A stretch of 64,000 bases of DNA, from the NCBI RefSeq assembly GCF_965641715.1, contig NZ_OZ282453.1. The stretch is one strand, 5' to 3'. The notes beneath the pieces are model-generated. The model searched no databases. It was not told the origin of the DNA and saw only the letters and a list, made by a program, of their open reading frames with translations. Positions 1-16,217 of the stretch are shown here, piece after piece. Numbering within the stretch: position 1 is the first letter of the stretch; each line of letters begins with the position of its first letter. The translations under genes and the position numbers were made by a program. The stretch is from Escherichia coli. Its GTDB lineage: Bacteria; Pseudomonadota; Gammaproteobacteria; Enterobacterales; Enterobacteriaceae.

Positions 1-1137
1 GAAGAAGCGGCTGTAGGGATTAAAAAATCCATCGAAGCCGGAACCTCTAAACTGAACGGTTTACCGGTAGTTAACCACGGCGTCGCAGCTTGCCGTCGCC
101 TCACCGAAACCCTGCAAAAACCGCTACAGATCCGCCACGGCACGCCAGATGCGCGTCTGCTGGCTGAAATCTCAATGGCCAGCGGCTTTACCAGTTATGA
201 AGGCGGTGGCATTTCCTACAACATTCCGTATGCCAAACGCGTAACGCTGGAAAAATCGATCCGCGACTGGCAGTACTGCGACCGTTTAATGGGGATGTAT
301 GAAGAACACGGGATCCGCATCAACCGCGAACCGTTTGGCCCACTAACGGGTACGCTGATCCCGCCGTTTATCTCGCACTCTATCGCGATAATCGAAGGCT
401 TGCTGGCGCTGGAACAGGGTGTGAAATCTATCACCGTTGGTTATGGCCAGGTCGGCAGCCTGACGCAGGATGTTGCGGCGATCCAGTCTCTGCGTGAACT
501 TGCACACGAATATTTTCAGAGCTATGGCTATACCGACTATGAATTGAGTACCGTGTTTCACCAGTGGATGGGCGGCTTTCCGGAAGACGAATCGAAAGCG
601 TTCGCTATTATCTCCTGGGGCGCAGCCGTCGCGGGGATGTCTGGTGCCACCAAAGTCATCACCAAAAGTCCGCACGAAGCCTGGGGCATCCCGACTGCCG
701 CTGCCAACATTCAGGGGCTGAAAGCCTCCCGCCAGATGCTCAACATGGTCAATGAGCAGAAATTCCCGCCGTGCCCTGCGGTTGAACTGGAAATTGAACT
801 GATTAAGAGCGAGGTTCGCGCAGTACTGAATAAAGTGTTCGAACTGGGTAATGGTGATATTGCGCGCGGAACGGTGCTGGCATTTGAAGCGGGCGTACTG
901 GATGTGCCGTTTGCGCCAGCCGCCTGCAACGCGGGCAAAATTCTTCCGGTCCGTGACAACACCGGCGCGATACGCGTACTGGAAGCCGGAGCCGTTCCAT
1001 TGCCAAAAGATATTCTCGACCTCCACCACGATTACGTTGCGGAACGCGCACGCTTTGAAGGACGCCAACCGACATTCCAGATGGTTGTAGATGACATCAA
1101 TGCTGTATCCCACAGTAAATTAATAGGAAGACCATAA
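1..1137 (+). CDS. glmE: glutamate mutase epsilon (E) subunit, 5'-truncated by the window edge
   Basis: Frame 1 is open from nt 1 to the stop at 1135-1137; the translation reads as GlmE/MutE-like (from memory) and is followed directly by methylaspartase, as in mut-mal clusters. Confidence 0.8.
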   Translation, partial: EEAAVGIKKSIEAGTSKLNGLPVVNHGVAACRRLTETLQKPLQIRHGTPDARLLAEISMASGFTSYEGGGISYNIPYAKRVTLEKSIRDWQYCDRLMGMYEEHGIRINREPFGPLTGTLIPPFISHSIAIIEGLLALEQGVKSITVGYGQVGSLTQDVAAIQSLRELAHEYFQSYGYTDYELSTVFHQWMGGFPEDESKAFAIISWGAAVAGMSGATKVITKSPHEAWGIPTAAANIQGLKASRQMLNMVNEQKFPPCPAVELEIELIKSEVRAVLNKVFELGNGDIARGTVLAFEAGVLDVPFAPAACNAGKILPVRDNTGAIRVLEAGAVPLPKDILDLHHDYVAERARFEGRQPTFQMVVDDINAVSHSKLIGRP

Positions 1138-2378
1138 TGAAAATAAAACAGGCTCTGTTCACCGCTGGCTACTCCTCATTCTATTTCGATGACCAGCAGG
1201 CGATAAAAAACGGAGCGGGTCATGACGGCTTTTTTTATACCGGGGAGCCGGTAACACAGGGGTTTAACGCCGTTCGTCAGGCCGGGGAGTGCGTATCGGT
1301 ACAGTTGATTCTGGAAAACGGCGCGGTCGCCGTAGGTGACTGTACTGCCGTACAGTATTCCGGGGCAGGCGGTCGCGATCCACTGTTCCTCGCAGAGCAC
1401 TTTATTCCGTTCCTCAACGACCATATCAAGCCATTACTGGTAGGCCGCGATGTGGATGCTTTCCTGCCGAATGCCCGTTTCTTCGACAAACTGCGTATTG
1501 ACGGCAACTTGCTGCATACCGCCGTGCGCTACGGATTATCACAGGCGCTGCTTGATGCTACCGCGCTGGCAACCGGCCGTCTGAAAACTGAAGTGGTCTG
1601 TGATGAATGGCAGTTGCCACGCGTGGCGGAATCCATTCCATTATTTGGTCAGAGCGGCGACGATCGATATATCGCCGTCGATAAGATGATCCTTAAGGGC
1701 ATCGACGTGCTGCCCCATGCGCTGATTAATAACGTCGAAGAGAAGCTGGGCTTTAAAGGTGAAAAACTGCGCGAATATGTCCGCTGGTTGTCGGATCGCA
1801 TTCTAAGCAAGCGCACCAGCGCACGCTACCACCCTACCCTGCACATCGATGTATACGGCACTATCGGTCTGATCTTCGATATGGATCCGCTTCGCTGTGC
1901 GCAATACATCGCCAGCCTGGAAAAAGAAGCGCAAGGCCTGCCGCTCTACATCGAAGGGCCGGTCGATGCCGGTAACAAGCCCGATCAAATTCGCCTGCTG
2001 ACCGCGATTACCAAAGAGCTGACGCGCCTCGGTTCCGGCGTGAAAATTGTGGCCGATGAATGGTGTAACACCTACCAGGATATTGTTGATTTCACTGATG
2101 CTGCCAGTTGTCACATGGTGCAAATCAAAACCCCGGATCTGGGCAGTATTCACAACATCGTCGATGCGGTTCTTTACTGCAACAGCCACAGCATGGAAGC
2201 GTACCAGGGCGGCACCTGCAATGAAACTGATGTCAGTGCCCGCACCTGTGTCCACGTCGCCCTTGCCGCTCGCCCTATGCGTATGCTGGTAAAACCAGGG
2301 ATGGGCTTTGACGAAGGCCTCGATATTGTCTTCAACGAAATGAATCGTACTATCGCGCTGTTGCAGGCTAAGGATTAA
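1137..2378 (+). CDS. 3-methylaspartate ammonia-lyase (methylaspartase, enolase superfamily)
   Basis: 413 aa ORF; start ATG overlaps the glmE stop (TAATG); length and N-terminus match methylaspartase as recalled. Confidence 0.85.
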   Translation: MKIKQALFTAGYSSFYFDDQQAIKNGAGHDGFFYTGEPVTQGFNAVRQAGECVSVQLILENGAVAVGDCTAVQYSGAGGRDPLFLAEHFIPFLNDHIKPLLVGRDVDAFLPNARFFDKLRIDGNLLHTAVRYGLSQALLDATALATGRLKTEVVCDEWQLPRVAESIPLFGQSGDDRYIAVDKMILKGIDVLPHALINNVEEKLGFKGEKLREYVRWLSDRILSKRTSARYHPTLHIDVYGTIGLIFDMDPLRCAQYIASLEKEAQGLPLYIEGPVDAGNKPDQIRLLTAITKELTRLGSGVKIVADEWCNTYQDIVDFTDAASCHMVQIKTPDLGSIHNIVDAVLYCNSHSMEAYQGGTCNETDVSARTCVHVALAARPMRMLVKPGMGFDEGLDIVFNEMNRTIALLQAKD

Positions 2379-2381
2379 CAA

Positions 2382-3752
2382 ATGGCTCGTTCTTTTAAAG
2401 TCTTATCGCCAACGGCAATCCTCGGGTATGGATTCCCGGAAGAGAGCTTCCGCAAAGCGATGGCAGAATCGCCCGATCTGATCGCCGTTGATGCAGGCTC
2501 TTCCGATCCAGGCCCCCACTACCTCGGGGCAGGCAAACCGTTTACCGATCGCGCAGGGGTCAAGCGCGATCTGCGCTATATGATCACCGCAGGCGTGCAA
2601 AATAATATACCGGTGGTGATCGGAACGGCCGGCGGTTCTGGTGCCGCACCACACCTGGAGTGGTGCCGAGAAATAATTCATGAGATTGCCCAGGAAGAGC
2701 ACCTCTCGTTCTCGATGGCGTTGATCCCGGCAGACGTTGACAAAGCCATCGTCCACCAGGCGCTGGATAACGGCAAAATCACGGCGCTGGAGTTTGTCCC
2801 GCCGTTAACCCACGACGCGATTGACGAAAGTACGTATATCGTCGCGCAAATGGGCATCGAACCCTTCCAGCGGGCGCTGAAAGAAGGCGCGCAAGTGGTG
2901 CTGGGCGGGCGCGCTTACGACCCGGCCTGCTTTGCTGCGCTCCCGATCATGCAAGGCTTTGATGAAGGTCTGGCGCTGCATTGTGGGAAAATCCTTGAGT
3001 GCGCAGCAATCGCCGCAACGCCCGGCTCAGGCTCTGACTGTGCGATGGGCATCATTGATGACAACGGCTTTACGCTGAAGACATTTAATCCGAAGCGTAA
3101 ATTTACCGAAACGTCAGCAGCTGCACACACACTGTATGAGAAATCCGATCCCTACTTCCTGCCAGGACCTGGCGGCGTGTTGAACCTGAAAGGCTGCACA
3201 TTTAAAGCAGTCAATGACGGCGAAGTCTACGTCAGCGGTTCTAAGCATGAAGAAACGCCGTATGCCCTGAAACTGGAAGGTGCACGACGGGTGGGCTTCC
3301 GCTGTCTGACCATCGCCGGAACGCGCGACCCGATTATGATCGCCGGGATCGATAAAATCATCGATGAAGTCAAAACCAGCGTTTCGCGTAACCTGTCGCT
3401 CGACGATGACAGCATTCGCATCAATTTCCACCTGTACGGCAAAAACGGGGTGATGGGAGACCATGAACCGATGCAAACTGCCGGGCATGAGCTGGGGATT
3501 GTCCTTGATGTAGTTGCACCGACCCAGGAAATTGCCAACAGCGTTTGCTCGCTGGTGCGCTCTACCATGCTGCACTACGGCTATGAAAACCGCATCGCTA
3601 CCGCAGGTAATCTGGCGTTCCCGTTCTCCCCTTCTGATATCCAGGGCGGGCCGGTATACGAATTTTCCATATATCACCTGATTGAAGCCAACGACGCTCT
3701 GCGTTTTGATTTCCATATTGAACAGGTGACGCCAGAAGGAGTTCAGGCATGA
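2382..3752 (+). CDS. DUF1446 (AtuA-like) family protein, function unknown
   Basis: 456 aa ORF 3 nt after methylaspartase; family assignment from memory of AtuA-like proteins and needs an HMM check. Confidence 0.65.
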   Translation: MARSFKVLSPTAILGYGFPEESFRKAMAESPDLIAVDAGSSDPGPHYLGAGKPFTDRAGVKRDLRYMITAGVQNNIPVVIGTAGGSGAAPHLEWCREIIHEIAQEEHLSFSMALIPADVDKAIVHQALDNGKITALEFVPPLTHDAIDESTYIVAQMGIEPFQRALKEGAQVVLGGRAYDPACFAALPIMQGFDEGLALHCGKILECAAIAATPGSGSDCAMGIIDDNGFTLKTFNPKRKFTETSAAAHTLYEKSDPYFLPGPGGVLNLKGCTFKAVNDGEVYVSGSKHEETPYALKLEGARRVGFRCLTIAGTRDPIMIAGIDKIIDEVKTSVSRNLSLDDDSIRINFHLYGKNGVMGDHEPMQTAGHELGIVLDVVAPTQEIANSVCSLVRSTMLHYGYENRIATAGNLAFPFSPSDIQGGPVYEFSIYHLIEANDALRFDFHIEQVTPEGVQA

Positions 3753-4066
3753 AACAGTCAATTGTCTCACTGGCGCAAGTCATTCGTTCGAAAAATGCCG
3801 GACCTTACGAACTGGTTTTAGATATTTTATTTAAAACGAAAGAAAACTATGAGCGAGTTAAATCATCAGGGCAATTAACCCCAGAACTGATTGCGCGCTT
3901 ATATCATGTTGAACCAGACTTTATTCATCGTATTGTCTGGTTTGATCCTTCTAACGCAGTAAAAATCGTCATGCCACGAGATATTATCTCCGGGAATGTA
4001 GGTGACAATGATGTCTATGGTGCACAGCAACATGCACCTTTATTAAATATGAGTTTCGATTTGTAA
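3749..4066 (+). CDS. small DUF4387-like protein, usual partner of DUF1446
   Basis: 105 aa ORF whose start overlaps the upstream stop by 4 nt (ATGA), implying translational coupling. Confidence 0.55.
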   Translation: MKQSIVSLAQVIRSKNAGPYELVLDILFKTKENYERVKSSGQLTPELIARLYHVEPDFIHRIVWFDPSNAVKIVMPRDIISGNVGDNDVYGAQQHAPLLNMSFDL

Positions 4067-4149
4067 TAATCCGAATACTTTTAGCCAACTGACATCCCGT
4101 CACTTATTGCAGTTCAACACTTCAGCTATTTGTAAGGTTGTAATAGCAG

Positions 4150-4181
4150 GTAGATGCCTGAATCTCTATTCAGGCATCTAC
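4150..4181 (+). terminator. perfect 14-bp stem hairpin (gtagatgcctgaat-ctct-attcaggcatctac), attenuator or operator candidate
   Basis: Inverted repeat read directly in the sequence between the DUF4387 gene and the transporter gene; downstream tract is only moderately T-rich. Confidence 0.45.
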
Positions 4182-4205
4182 TTCTCCTGATTCTGATTTA
4201 TCGCC

Positions 4206-5507
4206 GTGCACCTGATGGAGGAAAAAATGAAGAAAATAAGTTTAACCACGATGATTCTTTTGGCGCTGGTACTTGGAATGATTATCGGCGTAGTGCTTAA
4301 TAACACTGTTTCACCGGAAACAGCAAAACTCTATGCGCAAGAAATATCGATATTCACGACGATTTTCTTACGACTGATAAAAATGATTATCGCTCCGTTA
4401 GTGGTCTCTACCCTGGTGGTAGGTATTGCTAAAATGGGCGATGCCAAAGCCCTTGGTCGTATTTTTTCTAAAACACTCTTTTTATTTATTTGCGCCTCAT
4501 TGCTGTCAATTGCCTTAGGCTTGATAACGGTAAATTTCTTCATGCCAGGCACAGGAATTAATTTTGTTGCACACGGTGCCGAAACCACAGGAGTGGTCGC
4601 GTCAGAACCCTTTACGCTAAAAGTATTTATTTCGCATGCTTTCCCCACCAGCATTGTCGATGCCATGGCGCACAATGAAATTTTGCAAATCGTGGTGTTC
4701 TCAATTTTCCTCGGCTGTAGCCTGACGGCGATTGGAGAGAAAGGCAGCGCCATCGTTCACGCCTTAGATTCGCTGGCACATGCCATGTTAAAGCTCACTG
4801 GCTACGTCATGCTCTTCGCTCCCCTGACCGTATTCGCTGCTATTTCAGCATTGATTGCTGAACGAGGACTGGCAGTTATGGTGAGCGCCGGGATCTTTAT
4901 GGGTGAATTTTATTTCACCATGTTATTACTTTGGGTGCTGCTTATCGGTCTGGCCATCGTTTATGTCGGCCCCTGCATCAGACGCCTGACCCGCGCCCTT
5001 TCGGAACCCGCCCTGCTGGCATTTACCACATCCAGTTCTGAAGCGGCTTTTCCGGGAACGCTTGAAAAACTGGAGCAATTTGGCGTTTCCCCCAAAATTG
5101 CCAGCTTTGTCTTACCCATTGGCTACTCATTTAATCTCGTTGGATCAATGGCCTACTGCTCCTTCGCCACAGTTTTCATCGCCCAGGCCTGCAATATCCA
5201 TTTATCCATCGGTGAGCAAATCACCATGCTGTTGATCCTGATGTTGACCTCGAAAGGAATGGCTGGCGTACCACGCGCCTCAATGGTGGTTATCGCCGCC
5301 ACGCTCAACCAGTTCAATATTCCGGAAGCGGGGCTGATCTTGCTGATGGGCGTTGATCCGTTCCTTGATATGGGGCGTTCCGCGACAAACGTCATGAGCA
5401 ACGCAATGGGCGCTGCGATGGTGAGTCGGTGGGAAGGCGAACATTTCGGCGAGGGCTGTCGGGGTAAAGCATTAAAACCCAATGAATCGAACGTTGCTCT
5501 GCCCTGA
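4206..5507 (+). CDS. dicarboxylate/amino acid:cation symporter (DAACS, GltP/DctA-like)
   Basis: 433 aa polytopic membrane protein with DAACS-like motifs (…FIAQ…, …GVPRAS…); start may be the internal ATG at 4227 (MKKISLT…). Confidence 0.8.
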   Translation: MHLMEEKMKKISLTTMILLALVLGMIIGVVLNNTVSPETAKLYAQEISIFTTIFLRLIKMIIAPLVVSTLVVGIAKMGDAKALGRIFSKTLFLFICASLLSIALGLITVNFFMPGTGINFVAHGAETTGVVASEPFTLKVFISHAFPTSIVDAMAHNEILQIVVFSIFLGCSLTAIGEKGSAIVHALDSLAHAMLKLTGYVMLFAPLTVFAAISALIAERGLAVMVSAGIFMGEFYFTMLLLWVLLIGLAIVYVGPCIRRLTRALSEPALLAFTTSSSEAAFPGTLEKLEQFGVSPKIASFVLPIGYSFNLVGSMAYCSFATVFIAQACNIHLSIGEQITMLLILMLTSKGMAGVPRASMVVIAATLNQFNIPEAGLILLMGVDPFLDMGRSATNVMSNAMGAAMVSRWEGEHFGEGCRGKALKPNESNVALP

Positions 5508-5614
5508 GGGGGATCTTAAGCAATCAGAAGCCAATGACTACGCATTTTTATAAGCCGGATCAAGAAGTTAGACGGCAATTAAGTAACACTAACGTTTAAG
5601 GTGAAAAGTGAAAT

Positions 5615-7267
5615 ATGTCCAAACCATTTATCTGGCAAGAACCGTTTCTACAAAATAAAGACGGTACAGAATATACATTAATTAGCGATCAACATATTAC
5701 AGTAACGGAATTAGACGGCGAAGAAGTGATAAAAATCGCTCCTGAAGCATTAACGCTGCTTGCCCGGCAGGCATTTTATGAAGCCTCTTTTTTCTTACGT
5801 TCCGCTCATTTGCAACAGGTCGCCAGCATTCTTAACGATCCGCAGGCCAGCAGTAATGATAAATACGTTGCGTTGCAGTTATTACGTAATGCTGAAGTCT
5901 CAGCAAAAGGGGTATTACCCAACTGTCAGGATACCGGCACCGCAACTATTATTGCCAGTAAAGGGCAACAGATATGGACCGGAGGTAACGACGCCGAAGC
6001 CTTAAGCAAAGGCATTTACACCACTTTTCAGGAAAATAATCTGCGCTTTTCACAAAATGCGCCGCTGGATATGTATACCGAAGTCAATACGCAAACCAAT
6101 CTCCCGGCGCAGATTGATATCTGCGCCGTCGCTGGTGATGAGTACCATTTCCTCTGTGTTAATAAAGGAGGCGGCTCTGCCAATAAAGCCGCGCTTTATC
6201 AGGAAACCAAATCCTTATTGCAACCAGAAAAACTGACCGCATTTTTAATCGAAAAAATGAAATCGCTGGGCACCGCTGCCTGCCCGCCTTACCACATCGC
6301 CTTTGTCGTCGGAGGGCTTTCAGCCGATCAAACCTTAAAAATTGCCAAGCTGGCCTCAACGAAATATTACGACAATTTGCCCACCAGCGGAAACGAGCAG
6401 GGACAAGCATTCCGTGATATTGAGCTGGAAAAAGCGTTGCTCGAGGCCAGTCAGCAATTTGGTATTGGTGCACAATTTGGGGGGAAATATTTCGCTCATG
6501 ATATTCGCGTCATTCGTCTGCCGCGTCACGGTGGCTCTTGCCCGATAGCTATGGCGCTCTCCTGTTCTGCCGATCGCAATATCAAAGCAAAAATTAACAA
6601 ACACGGTATCTGGCTGGAAAAACTCGAACACAATCCGGGGCAATATATTCCAGCCTCACTGCGGGAAGAAAATCACGCGCAACATGTACAACTGGATCTA
6701 AACCGTCCGTTGCGTGACGTGATGCTGGATCTCGCCAGATTACCGGTAGGCACCCGCGTGTCGTTAAGTGGTCCCATCGTAGTGGCGCGCGATATCGCCC
6801 ACGCCAAAATAAAAGCGCGGCTGGATAGCGGTGAATCGATGCCGGAGTACCTGAAGCATCATATTGTCTATTACGCTGGCCCGGCGAAAACACCGGAGAA
6901 CATGGCCTGCGGTTCACTGGGTCCAACTACGGGCGGTCGAATGGACGGTTATGTCGATACCTTCCAGGCGGCCGGCGGCAGTCTGGTGATGTTATCGAAA
7001 GGGAACCGCAGCCAGCAGGTCACCGATGCTTGTCACAAACATGGCGGCTTCAATCTGGGAAGTATTGGCGGTGCAGCTGCGTTACTGGCGCAAGAATATG
7101 TCAAAAGTCTGCGTTGCCTGGAATACCCGGAGCTGGGTATGGAAGCGGTGTGGATGATGGAAGTGGAAAATCTGCCCGCATTCATCCTGGTAGATGATAA
7201 AGGCAATAATTTCTTTAGTCTGTTTGAGCAGCAACACCGCTGCGCCAGTTGCCCTGCGGGACATTAA
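5615..7267 (+). CDS. fumD: class I (Fe-S) fumarate hydratase paralog, probable mesaconase/fumarase
   Basis: 550 aa, collinear with and highly similar to E. coli FumA as recalled; context with glutamate mutase and methylaspartase suggests mesaconate hydration. The symbol fumD is from memory of the O157:H7 literature. Confidence 0.8.
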
Positions 7268-7276
7268 GGAAAATGA

Positions 7277-7879
7277 ATGGAAGCGCGAATTTCAACTGAA
7301 CGGCATGTGCAGCGCCAACAGAAATTGAAGGAACAGGTCGATACGCGCGTCGCAGCGGCGATAGAGAAAAAAGGGATCTTGATTGTTTTCACCGGCAACG
7401 GCAAAGGGAAATCCACTGCCGCGTTTGGTACTGTGACGCGCGCGGTGGGTCATGGCAAAACGGTGGGGGTTGCGCAGTACATCAAGGGGCAATGGGACAA
7501 CGGCGAATACAACCTTCTCCAGCCGCTGGGGGTTGAGTTTCATATTATGGGAACCGGTTTTACCTGGGAGACACAGAACCGGCAAGCGGATATCGACGCG
7601 GCGAAAGAGGTCTGGTCGGAAAGCAAACGGATGCTGGCTGACAAGCGTTACGACTTAGTGGTGCTTGATGAGCTGACCTATATGCTGGCTTACCATTATC
7701 TGGATACCGAAGAAGTGATCGCTTCTCTGCAAAACCGCCCGGCACAACAAAGTGTCATTGTCACCGGACGCGGTTGCCACAGTCAGATATTAAAAATGGC
7801 AGATACGGTCAGCGAAATCCGCCCCGTCAAACATGCTTTTGATAACGGCATTCAGGCCCAGCCGGGTATCGACTGGTAA
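7277..7879 (+). CDS. ATP:cob(I)alamin adenosyltransferase (BtuR/CobA/CobO family)
   Basis: 200 aa with a P-loop (GNGKGKSTAAFG) typical of BtuR-type adenosyltransferases; fits the AdoCbl requirement of glutamate mutase. Confidence 0.8.
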   Translation: MEARISTERHVQRQQKLKEQVDTRVAAAIEKKGILIVFTGNGKGKSTAAFGTVTRAVGHGKTVGVAQYIKGQWDNGEYNLLQPLGVEFHIMGTGFTWETQNRQADIDAAKEVWSESKRMLADKRYDLVVLDELTYMLAYHYLDTEEVIASLQNRPAQQSVIVTGRGCHSQILKMADTVSEIRPVKHAFDNGIQAQPGIDW

Positions 7880-7882
7880 TAA

Positions 7883-7914
7883 CTGCGCCTGGCATCCCGC
7901 CAGGCGCAGGTTTT
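7883..7914. terminator. bidirectional intrinsic terminator between convergent genes
   Basis: 11-bp perfect stem (ctgcgcctggc / gccaggcgcag) followed by TTTT, sitting between the adenosyltransferase stop and the LysR stop. Confidence 0.55.
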
Positions 7915-8818
7915 ACATCTCCTGCGGTACGACCGATTTCGCCAGCAACCATTCACGAAATTGCTGCAAGTGCGGTGAGTCAGATTTCTCTTCCTGCCAC
8001 GTCATAATAAAACGATTACCGGTACGAATAGGCACATCACAGGGAATCACCATATCGCCACTATCCAAATCATGTTGAATAGCGAACCGTGGTAACAGCG
8101 CCACGCCGAGATTAGAGCGCACGGCGGCAATCAGCATTGAAAGCAAATCGAAACGTGGTCCGTTGTTGACCAGCGGACTACTAACGCCAGATAAAGCAAA
8201 CCACTCTTCCCAGCCAGTAATACGGGTGCTTTGATGCAGAAGTGGTAACTCAGTAAGCAGTTCTGCCACTGACAGTTTTTGATCGGACATTGCAAGCAAA
8301 CTGCCGCTGCATACCGGCAAAATCTCCTCATCAAAGAGATATTCTACTTCCGCCCAGGGTGCGCAAAAATTTTCGCGCATAATGACAGCATCGTACTCCC
8401 GATTAAGAAAATCGCCGTTATTAGCTAAAGAATGAATATTAACAATAATATCGGGATGTAACTTTGTGAATTCATGTAAATTTGGGATTAACCAGTGGGT
8501 ACTAAAAGTAGGATTAACGGCAAGTTCAATAACCTGAACCGTAGGCTGCCAGGTCATAATGGTATTGGTATCGCGTTCCAGCTTATTTAATGTTTCTTTT
8601 ACTATCCCCAGGTAATACTTCCCTTTATCATTAAGAAAAATGCGTTTTTTAGAGTGTGAAAATAACGGAGTACGTAAAAATTCCTCCAGCGCACTTACTT
8701 GTCTGAATACTGCACTTTGGGTTAACGCTAACTCCTCTGCCGCTCTGGTATAACTTTCATGACGTGCGACGACCTCAAAAGTCACCAGCAGTTCCGTTTT
8801 AGGTATTTTCCCTCGCAT
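7913..8818 (-). CDS. LysR-family transcriptional regulator
   Basis: 301 aa; N-terminal HTH (…FEVVARHESYTRAAEELALTQSAVFRQV…) typical of LysR-type regulators. Confidence 0.85.
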   Translation of the reverse strand: MRGKIPKTELLVTFEVVARHESYTRAAEELALTQSAVFRQVSALEEFLRTPLFSHSKKRIFLNDKGKYYLGIVKETLNKLERDTNTIMTWQPTVQVIELAVNPTFSTHWLIPNLHEFTKLHPDIIVNIHSLANNGDFLNREYDAVIMRENFCAPWAEVEYLFDEEILPVCSGSLLAMSDQKLSVAELLTELPLLHQSTRITGWEEWFALSGVSSPLVNNGPRFDLLSMLIAAVRSNLGVALLPRFAIQHDLDSGDMVIPCDVPIRTGNRFIMTWQEEKSDSPHLQQFREWLLAKSVVPQEM

Positions 8819-9100
8819 AATGCCGTCCCTTAAAAATAGTTTAAACCATCAAAAATACATTACTTATTACGAAGTAATGGTAACCAAAGCAGCAATAAAT
8901 AATTTATAAGAATCATGATTGACATTTATAAACCAGTAAGGCTGGCGTGACAAATATCTTAATCAGATAATAATAATCCGAAAAGCACAGCGCCTTTCGA
9001 ATTATCCGGAATCACATTAAGTGAAAATTATTAAATTGATATCATTTATCATATCTGTGGATATTATGATAAACAATCAACAAAGATTTTATTTTTGATT
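8819..9100. promoter_or_regulatory. AT-rich upstream region of the LysR gene
   Basis: About 280 bp of very AT-rich DNA immediately 5' of the LysR start; no specific motif assigned. Confidence 0.3.
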
Positions 9101-9383
9101 TATAGCATATCCCTCTAAGAATTTTTGCGATGCTGCAATATCCGGGGTAAAGACCCGATCCTGGCTGACAAATGGCACGACTTGACGAAAAGCGGTGAAC
9201 ATCGCTTTTGTTGATTTACTTAACGCTACGGTCAAACGCTGGGAAGCCAGTGCATCAGGTAACGATTCGAAATTCGCCGTCGTTCTTATTCGTGGCTTGC
9301 GGTCGGTTGCGGCAATCCACAGTGGCTGTGGTCATGCAGTCAAGCCTGCAGTCAGATTTCGACCGTGGTTAACCGTTTAAGGC

Positions 9384-11559: not shown

Positions 11560-11860
11560 CGTAGACCGAATATTTCGTATCGCTCCCGGGTATTGTCGGT
11601 CACCCGTAGGCCTGATAAGACGTGTAAGCGTCGCATCTGGCATCGCTTGTCGGATGCGGCGCGAGCGCCTTATCCGACCTACATCGGTGCTTCCCGTAGG
11701 CCTGATAAGACGTGTAAGCGTCGCATCAGACATCGCTTGTCGGATGCGGCGCGAGCGCCTTATCCGACCTACATTGGTGGTCCCGTAGGCCTGATAAGAC
11801 GCGTCAGCGTCGCATCAGGCTTCAATTGCCGGAGAAGGCGATAATGCCTTATCCGGTCTA
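11560..11860. repeat. BIME/REP array, three ~95-bp units
   Basis: Three near-identical units containing gcctgataagacg…gcgtcgcatc…cggatgcggcg…ccttatccgacctac palindromes in the sucB-sucC intergenic region. Confidence 0.85.
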
Positions 11861-15917: not shown

Positions 15918-16094
15918 CGTGATCCCTTAAGCATCTTTTTTATGCTTACTTCGCCGTGGATACTACCACGCACAGTGATGTGCGTGCCGGGGTTCACTTG
16001 CGAGCTCTTGTCTACGTAGTGGCTCGCGAAGGAACCTTTAAAAACTGTCTTAGTGTCAGGGGCAGTTTTTAAAGATTTCCTGCATTTCTTTGTT

Positions 16095-16217
16095 ACGCCT
16101 GATGCGCTGCGCTTATCAGGCCTACGGGTAATGACTTGTAGGCCGGATAAGGCGTTCACGCCGCATCCGGCACTGGTTGCCTGATGCGACGCTTGCGCGT
16201 CTTATCAGGCCTACGGT
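16095..16217. repeat. REP elements in the sdhB-sucA intergenic region
   Basis: gcctgatgcg…cttatcaggcctac and gccggataaggcg…gcatccggc palindromes. Confidence 0.8.

Follow-up and report, generated by a model that had tools for sequence, protein, structure and literature searches.

Among B12-dependent operons, and thus for an adenosylcobalamin (AdoCbl)-dependent one, a built-in adenosyltransferase gene is nothing unusual. The eut operon follows this logic with a dedicated adenosyltransferase, EutT. The pdu operon follows it with PduO, which is encoded beside a reactivation/accessory factor and takes part with PduS in cofactor recycling (PMC2982820). PduO and EutT belong to protein families unrelated to the CobA type, whereas the island enzyme considered here, CobO, is CobA-type. 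Salmonella CobA and Escherichia coli BtuR share a fold family and a length with the island CobO and are 68-69% identical to it over 196 residues, but the gene for CobO belongs to a catabolic operon and not to the yciK-btuR locus. The gene that follows cobO encodes a LysR-type regulator that likewise has known relatives. Members of the GcvA subfamily, such as GcvA, AmpR and DsdC, have an N-terminal HTH_1 domain and a LysR substrate-binding domain, as does the island protein. Relatives are divergent from their target operon and have a T-N11-A box nearby, whereas in E. coli and closely related species the island gene has been relocated to the operon's 3' end and converges on it.

The locus itself has been described. 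The glutamate fermentation cluster of Kronen & Berg 2015 (PLoS One 10:e0145098) is the same locus, CobA and the regulator are already drawn in it (Fig 5), and the feature discussed here is no different. The same study characterised FumD from this locus biochemically, reported that 26.5% of E. coli genomes and 90.6% of O157:H7 strains carry fumD, and found no condition under which O157:H7 expressed the cluster. RefSeq annotates both cobO and lysR, and a literature search with Sakai locus tags for work on the two genes returned only Kronen & Berg 2015. The arrangement of cobO and lysR is already known and annotated, and neither gene is surprising in itself. Our additions are figures for the paralogy of cobO, the turnover of the hairpin between the two genes across species, four arrangements that document relocation of the regulator, and a conserved box upstream of glmS as an operator prediction.

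We analyzed a stretch of 64,000 nucleotides from E. coli (RefSeq assembly GCF_965641715.1, contig NZ_OZ282453.1), hereafter the window. Its list of open reading frames contains frames at exactly 7277-7879 (+ strand, 200 aa) and 7913-8818 (- strand, 301 aa), and these lie among the following features.

175-1137, + strand: C-terminal part of glmE, cut by the window edge (Pfam/NCBIfam matches)
1137-2378, + strand: mal (Pfam/NCBIfam matches)
2382-3752, + strand: AtuA-like gene (Pfam/NCBIfam matches)
3749-4066, + strand: DUF4387 gene (Pfam/NCBIfam matches)
4206-5507, + strand: GltP/DctA-like transporter (Pfam/NCBIfam matches)
5615-7267, + strand: fumD, class I fumarase/mesaconase (Pfam/NCBIfam matches; FumD biochemistry in Kronen & Berg 2015)
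175-7267, + strand: upstream part of the operon within the window, glmE to fumD (same locus annotated by RefSeq in O157:H7)
7266-7270, + strand: Shine-Dalgarno sequence AAGGA of cobO, 6 nt before the ATG (read from the sequence)
7277-7879, + strand: cobO, predicted CobA/BtuR-type ATP:co(I)rrinoid adenosyltransferase, 200 aa (family models, alignments)
7883-7914, both strands: palindrome plus GTTTT, putative terminator common to the convergent cobO and lysR transcripts (folding, terminator scan)
7913-8818, - strand: LysR-family regulator of the GcvA subfamily, 301 aa (HTH_1 and LysR_substrate domains)
8819-9089, - strand: AT-rich region upstream of lysR, presumed lysR promoter (extents of similarity between strains)

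The genes glmS and glmL and the operon promoter lie beyond the window.

As the final gene after glmSLE-mal-atuA-DUF4387-gltP-fumD, cobO starts 9 nt past the fumD stop codon (TAA, 7265-7267), which its Shine-Dalgarno sequence overlaps. Because the gap is so short, we infer that fumD and cobO are co-transcribed and that their translation is probably coupled. The two larger internal gaps of the operon contain no strong terminator and no consensus promoter. Given the 9-nt gap, the overlapping Shine-Dalgarno sequence and the terminator-free internal gaps, cobO is most simply read as the last cistron of the glm-mal-fumD transcript, in agreement with the first-pass annotation, which had placed it at the end of the mutase operon. 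The cluster encodes no microcompartment and no dedicated corrin reductase. A search of the window, and of the loci in E. coli, Yersinia and Yokenella, for a cobalamin riboswitch or any other Rfam family gave only REP-derived matches, to naRNA4 and ES036.

The locus sits in the interval between sucD and cydA, which differs between E. coli strains. On its 3' side, sucD and sucC follow on the - strand, together with the remainder of the suc-sdh region. In O157:H7 and in this window the glm block abuts sucD directly; at other E. coli junctions the glm block is followed either by a hut operon plus rtcB or by rtcB plus mngRAB. In all three junction variants lysR remains joined to cobO, and an identical CobO protein accession is found in divergent E. 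coli lineages.

Sequence comparisons place CobO in the CobA family. The protein matches Pfam PF02572 (CobA_CobO_BtuR) over profile positions 1-172 of 172 (E=4.7e-64, 216.2 bits, cutoff 25.7) and passes the cutoffs of NCBIfam PRK05986 (295.6 bits, cutoff 185) and TIGR00708 cobA (246.6 bits, cutoff 167.75). Both NCBIfam models describe cob(I)yrinic acid a,c-diamide adenosyltransferase. CobO can also be aligned over its full length to the Salmonella CobA structures 1G5R and 4HUT (E=2.5e-88), relative to which it carries a 4-residue N-terminal extension. Its P-loop, GNGKGKST (residues 40-47), corresponds to GNGKGKTT (residues 36-43) in CobA, the sole change being the conservative replacement of Thr42 (CobA numbering) by Ser. 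Phe95 and Trp97 of CobO align with Phe91 and Trp93 of CobA and are invariant across all five aligned sequences. The title of Moore et al. 2012 names these two CobA residues as critical, in connection with four-coordinate cob(II)alamin and displacement of the lower ligand. Equivalents of CobA Arg9, Arg51, Glu128 and Arg161 are conserved as well, so that the P-loop and the catalytic residues, whose absence had been named in advance as evidence against the assignment, are present. CobO has Ser in place of CobA Arg165, a putative flavodoxin-docking residue whose role the literature that we consulted did not confirm. Overall, the comparisons identify cobO as the gene for a predicted full-length CobA/BtuR-type ATP:co(I)rrinoid adenosyltransferase. 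With the Arg165 equivalent lost, the island enzyme may be specialized in its reductant partner or in direct hand-over of AdoCbl to GlmS. Our literature search found no published activity or complementation test of the island cobO paralogue.

The genome comparison bears out the suggestion that the island encodes a second BtuR-type adenosyltransferase besides btuR. A search with cobO recovered a btuR-like locus, at about 68-69% nucleotide identity, from 5422 of the 5426 complete E. coli genomes, and the island copy, at an identity of at least 95%, from 1122 of them; the records with the island copy show two places. The more distant locus is btuR (annotated cobO), which adjoins yciK at its own yciK-btuR locus in K-12. 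The cobO-lysR pair occurs in about 1120 of the 5426 genomes, where the housekeeping btuR is also kept. At the protein level, CobO is 68.9% identical to Salmonella CobA (1G5R) and 67.9% identical to K-12 BtuR over 196 aa, compared to 81% for the Salmonella island copy and 63.8% for the Yersinia cluster copy, and is about equidistant (64-69%) from the housekeeping enzymes and the Yersinia cluster copy. Relative to other genera, dN is 0.10-0.13 and dS is saturated for cobO and lysR alike; dN/dS for cobO is 0.055-0.078 where dS could be computed. Both genes are under purifying selection, which is strong for cobO. Because dS is saturated, cobO is old rather than a recent duplicate, and it represents a separate paralogue lineage of btuR. 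BtuR could also supply the cofactor, and cobO may be useful only quantitatively.

A survey of one genome per species, with methylaspartase as the query, yielded 80 loci. In the gene order that we refer to as type A, glmSLE-mal-atuA-DUF4387-gltP-(extra gene)-fumD-cobO is followed by a converging lysR. Besides E. coli, 11 further loci have the type A order with cobO and then the converging lysR; type A hosts are Klebsiella oxytoca, Citrobacter (five loci in four species), Buttiauxella, Lelliottia, Raoultella and Salmonella arizonae. The locus of Escherichia sp. MOD1 has the same order on a sequence that ends before any lysR could show. Three other arrangements were observed. In Yersinia, lysR-fumD-cobA is divergent from sumT, a GHMP kinase gene, glmS and the genes that follow. 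Yokenella and Enterobacter ENT03 have lysR diverging from an uptake system with ABC and TonB-receptor components, after which comes glmS. In Paludibacterium and Azoarcus, a lysR homologue with 45% identity and glmS diverge directly from one another. Through all four architectures the regulator accompanies the glm genes, which is strong comparative evidence that it regulates them.

The cobO gene occupies the same place in the operon at 13 loci, and in Yersinia it is present in another arrangement. In Pseudescherichia vulneris and Escherichia sp. ESNIH1 the cluster is complete apart from cobO, and there fumD abuts lysR. No CobA-type gene was found within 10 kb of the clusters outside Enterobacterales, and clostridial and other distant glm clusters have no detectable homologue of either lysR or cobO within 10 kb. 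We conclude that cobO is, on this comparison, a frequent but dispensable accessory confined to Enterobacterales. The first-pass annotation had proposed that the island functions as a unit. The persistence of lysR orthologues beside glm genes in four architectures and the presence of cobO in most enterobacterial clusters favor that view, in which the LysR protein would control the operon.

In the LysR protein (301 aa), HTH_1 spans residues 9-66 (63.1 bits) and LysR_substrate spans residues 96-293 (98.6 bits). Among the NCBIfam models the GcvA subfamily matches it best, and because the score of 221.5 bits is under the cutoff of 288 we consider the protein to be a GcvA-like member of the subfamily and not GcvA. 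The closest solved structure is likewise of GcvA (8Y6U, E=5e-43). Truncated lysR variants exist, in clusters of 189-279 aa. Percent identity alone does not define orthology for this regulator, because a 69%-identical paralogue in Citrobacter portucalensis lies away from any glm cluster and a 45% relative in Pseudogulbenkiania adjoins fumarases without glm genes. In E. coli, lysR converges on the operon at a distance of about 10 kb from glmS, which is not the divergent layout usual in the LysR family. The region upstream of lysR (8819-9089) has no consensus sigma-70 promoter on the - strand; it is common to strains with a neighboring hut operon, and in PT62-type strains it is replaced from 18 bp before the ATG. 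Based on its genomic company, the protein is probably a dedicated regulator of the glm operon.

A candidate target for this regulator is found upstream of glmS. When 600 bp upstream of glmS were aligned for 12 type A species, a 19-bp block, TTGAAAATAGATCAATTGC, was recovered with 0-1 mismatches in these 12 enterobacterial species, within a region that is otherwise largely unalignable. This box starts about 120-135 bp before the glmS ATG, beyond the window, and contains a TGA-N7-TCA (T-N11-A) dyad of the kind bound by LysR-type regulators. A relaxed pattern, T[G/T]A-N7-TC[A/G][A/T]TTG[C/T], is matched exactly upstream of glmS in Yersinia, Morganella, Paludibacterium and Azoarcus, while Yokenella and Enterobacter ENT03 deviate from it by one mismatch; the pattern was derived from the same sequences in which it is counted here, and only the invariance in 12 species is independent evidence. 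In Paludibacterium and Azoarcus, no more than about 35-95 bp separate the box from the start of the divergent lysR. Morganella has the box and no lysR within 10 kb. A sequence related to the box precedes fumD in Yersinia. Because related forms of the box occur wherever the regulator does, we propose it as the candidate operator. In E. coli, glmS is not preceded by a consensus sigma-70 promoter, which fits a promoter that depends on an activator.

Other readings of the box and other copies of it were considered and rejected. A search of the window for a second copy, including the regions upstream of lysR, gltP and fumD, gave six one-mismatch matches compared to 17 expected by chance. The sole such match within the island (5575-5592, opposite strand) is not significant, and E. 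coli lysR is not preceded by a copy of the box. Read as an FNR site, TTGAA-N5-ATCAA would have one base too many between the half-sites (TTGAT-N4-ATCAA), and TTGA is missing from the box in the beta-proteobacteria. Another conserved block, GATCACAA, which lies upstream of the box at a distance of about 135 bp, resembles half of a CRP site.

Between them, cobO and lysR leave a spacer of 33 nt (7880-7912) that is nearly filled by a 27-nt hairpin (7883-7909) with an 11-bp stem, including 9 G-C pairs, and a 5-nt loop. Its folding energy is -28.3 kcal/mol for the + strand and -27.4 kcal/mol for the - strand, with z-scores of -5.45 and -4.40, respectively, and 0 of 200 shuffles fold as well. The + strand tail after the stem, GUUUUACAU, includes a GUUUU U-tract and passes a terminator scan, compared to the - strand tail, UUAUUACC, in which UUAUUA is weak and fails it; the + strand alone was flagged. 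In E. coli, 1122 records from 1121 genomes match the palindrome, 1043 of them at an identity of at least 99%. It is single-copy, and we rejected the possibility that it is a dispersed repeat. A hairpin is present at the same position in all 11 type A spacers examined. In the 10 species other than E. coli with this gene order it is always a strong one, with sequences that are unrelated and in several cases are REP-like GCCGGATAA...TTATCCGGC elements. What is kept in these spacers is structure, not sequence. These results support part of the earlier proposal of a shared bidirectional terminator, namely the convergence of the two genes across a strong hairpin that is stable on both strands. Given the weak U-tract on the - strand, its bidirectional action is putative and termination of the lysR transcript at the hairpin plausible.

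One alternative interpretation is that the palindrome is not bidirectional and serves instead as a one-way operon terminator, an RNA 3'-end stabilizer or a REP-like spacer, with the lysR transcript ending elsewhere or by Rho. The outcome of the terminator scan, passed on the + strand only, and the UUAUUA tail on the other strand speak for this interpretation, and the REP-like nature of the equivalent hairpin in several relatives and the distance of only 3 nt between the stem and the lysR stop codon also fit it. However, the stem is very stable in both orientations, the TAATAA before it and the GTTTT after it form the A-tract/T-tract layout of bidirectional terminators, and a hairpin has been retained at this site in all 11 type A spacers despite complete turnover of its sequence. 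We consider a one-way palindrome rather unlikely and a terminator shared by both transcripts the better reading.

Two further alternatives concern the genes that flank the hairpin. The island cobO could be a redundant passenger, a duplicate housekeeping adenosyltransferase kept by linkage while btuR supplies all of the AdoCbl. The presence of btuR in essentially every E. coli genome is compatible with this scenario, as are the clean loss of cobO in P. vulneris and Escherichia sp. ESNIH1, whose clusters retain fumD and lysR, and the lack of a CobA-type gene within 10 kb of clusters outside Enterobacterales. Against it stand the strong purifying selection seen in cobO (dN/dS of 0.055-0.078 where computable, with dS saturated), its constant operon position in 13 loci alongside the other arrangement in Yersinia, the same protein accession across divergent E. 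coli lineages and tight coupling to fumD, and we judge this scenario improbable. Still less probable, in our assessment, is that lysR does not regulate the glm operon and is instead an orphan or part of a neighboring module such as hut, brought to its present position by an accident in a rearrangement hotspot. In E. coli strain 20, lysR is directly downstream of hutH, of which the window retains a remnant; its convergent position 10 kb from the glmS promoter is atypical for the family, no matching box precedes lysR itself, and the 69% Citrobacter paralogue sits elsewhere. Nevertheless, orthologues in Salmonella, Klebsiella, Citrobacter, Yersinia, Yokenella, Paludibacterium and Azoarcus lie beside glm genes at loci where hut genes were neither detected nor annotated, the canonical divergent position is taken in four of these seven genera, lysR stays with cobO in the three E. 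coli junction variants, and the glmS promoters share the T-N11-A box.

The explanation that we consider best, and likely to be correct, is that this region is the 3' end of the enterobacterial glutamate mutase/methylaspartase/mesaconase cluster with a functional CobA-type CobO that supplies AdoCbl, a dedicated LysR regulator acting at the box, and a hairpin terminator. In this model cobO would be transcribed last in the operon and give rise to an adenosyltransferase that is active in vivo. When the operon is on, CobO would raise the capacity for AdoCbl for glutamate mutase (GlmS/GlmE), using salvaged or inactivated cobalamin that has been reduced to cob(I)alamin, and would work alongside the accessory protein GlmL/MutL. 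The GC-rich hairpin would end the operon transcript and would probably end the lysR transcript too, keeping the two converging transcription units apart. The GcvA-like regulator would most likely act about 10 kb away, at the glmS promoter via TTGAAAATAGATCAATTGC, in response to some co-inducer.

The glm cluster, whose product is citramalate, is carried by about a fifth of the complete E. coli genomes considered here. We tentatively suggest, as a possibility of slightly less than even standing, that the convergent GcvA-like regulator, acting through TTGAAAATAGATCAATTGC some 120 bp ahead of glmS, serves as the switch by which the glutamate mutase cluster is kept silent in the laboratory. If so, this would explain why the cluster has resisted induction in O157:H7, and the co-inducer would reveal the natural signal of the cluster, which is possibly host- or microbiota-derived. 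The regulator and its predicted operator could provide a concrete handle for switching on the silent operon.

The place beside the LysR-type regulator gene lysR (window 7913-8818, minus strand), held in the window by the adenosyltransferase gene cobO (7277-7879, plus strand), is occupied by other B12-related accessories in two further genera. These are a FecCD/ABC/TonB-receptor/periplasmic-binding uptake system in Yokenella (locus L009, 5190-9772), and a uroporphyrinogen methyltransferase-type gene with a GHMP kinase in Yersinia (locus L007, 7661-9346). A search of the Yokenella and Yersinia loci for a cobalamin riboswitch detected none. In the clusters of Pseudescherichia vulneris (L024) and Escherichia sp. 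ESNIH1 (L030), cobO is absent and tblastn found no remnant of it; the stop codons of fumD and lysR are nearly adjacent at approximately 15990-16015. Where cobO is present, its product can be compared with Salmonella CobA at Arg165, a putative flavodoxin-docking residue. According to the protein alignment, the equivalent residue 169 of CobO (codon at window 7781-7783) is Ser, and this position is Ala in the Salmonella island copy and Arg in both the Yersinia cluster copy and the housekeeping enzymes.

Insertion-sequence damage at the cobO-lysR end of the island was observed in some E. coli strains. Strain 14EC033 (L002, 7762-9100) has an IS1 element in place of the 3' end of gltP plus fumD, cobO and the greater part of lysR, and strain 7CC carries an IS200 element inside the fumD-cobO-lysR stretch. 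Protein clusters of truncated lysR products of 189-279 amino acids also exist.

An alignment of the DNA upstream of glmS revealed two conserved blocks, located in the O157:H7 locus L001, outside the window:
L001 2705-2723: 19-bp block TTGAAAATAGATCAATTGC, ~120 bp upstream of glmS
L001 2570-2577, and the corresponding positions of other species in the alignment: second block GATCACAA, ~135 bp upstream of the 19-bp block

The 19-bp block, a candidate operator for the regulator, has 0-1 mismatches across 12 enterobacterial species, while the remaining intergenic DNA is divergent. Within it is a TGA-N7-TCA (T-N11-A) dyad, and Yersinia, Yokenella, Morganella, Paludibacterium and Azoarcus have related forms of the block upstream of their glmS genes. 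The second block, preceded by AAAATAAGAT in most species aligned, looks like a CRP half-site (TCACA).

The lysR-sucD spacer, on the far side of lysR, is a patchwork of deletion scars, and REP-derived elements were found farther on, in the suc region:
Window 9090-9382: lysR-sucD spacer
Window 9090-9282 (-): remnant of a hutH-type ammonia-lyase gene, last ~50 codons
Window 9286-9382: two short rtcB 3' fragments
Window 11609-11769: two REP-derived naRNA4 matches, between sucC and sucB
Window 16141-16211: one REP-derived naRNA4 match, upstream of sucA

The hutH-type remnant and rtcB fragments indicate that the O157-type junction is a deletion product of a hut/rtcB-bearing arrangement. In PT62-type strains (L004, 13820-14410), lysR is divergent from rtcB and similarity to the window stops 18 bp before the start codon of lysR; the lysR promoter region therefore differs between E. 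coli lineages. The length of the sucC-sucB spacer also varies between strains.

Directly after the methylaspartase gene mal, the operon carries a further gene pair:
Window 2382-4066: AtuA-like (DUF1446) and DUF4387 genes

The same order, mal followed by this pair, was found in Lentisphaerota, Spirochaetes, Aminicenantes, Riflebacteria, Planctomycetes and others, often with a class I fumarase as the next gene. The clostridial clusters are without the pair. The AtuA-like and DUF4387 genes may bear on the fate of mesaconate or citramalate.
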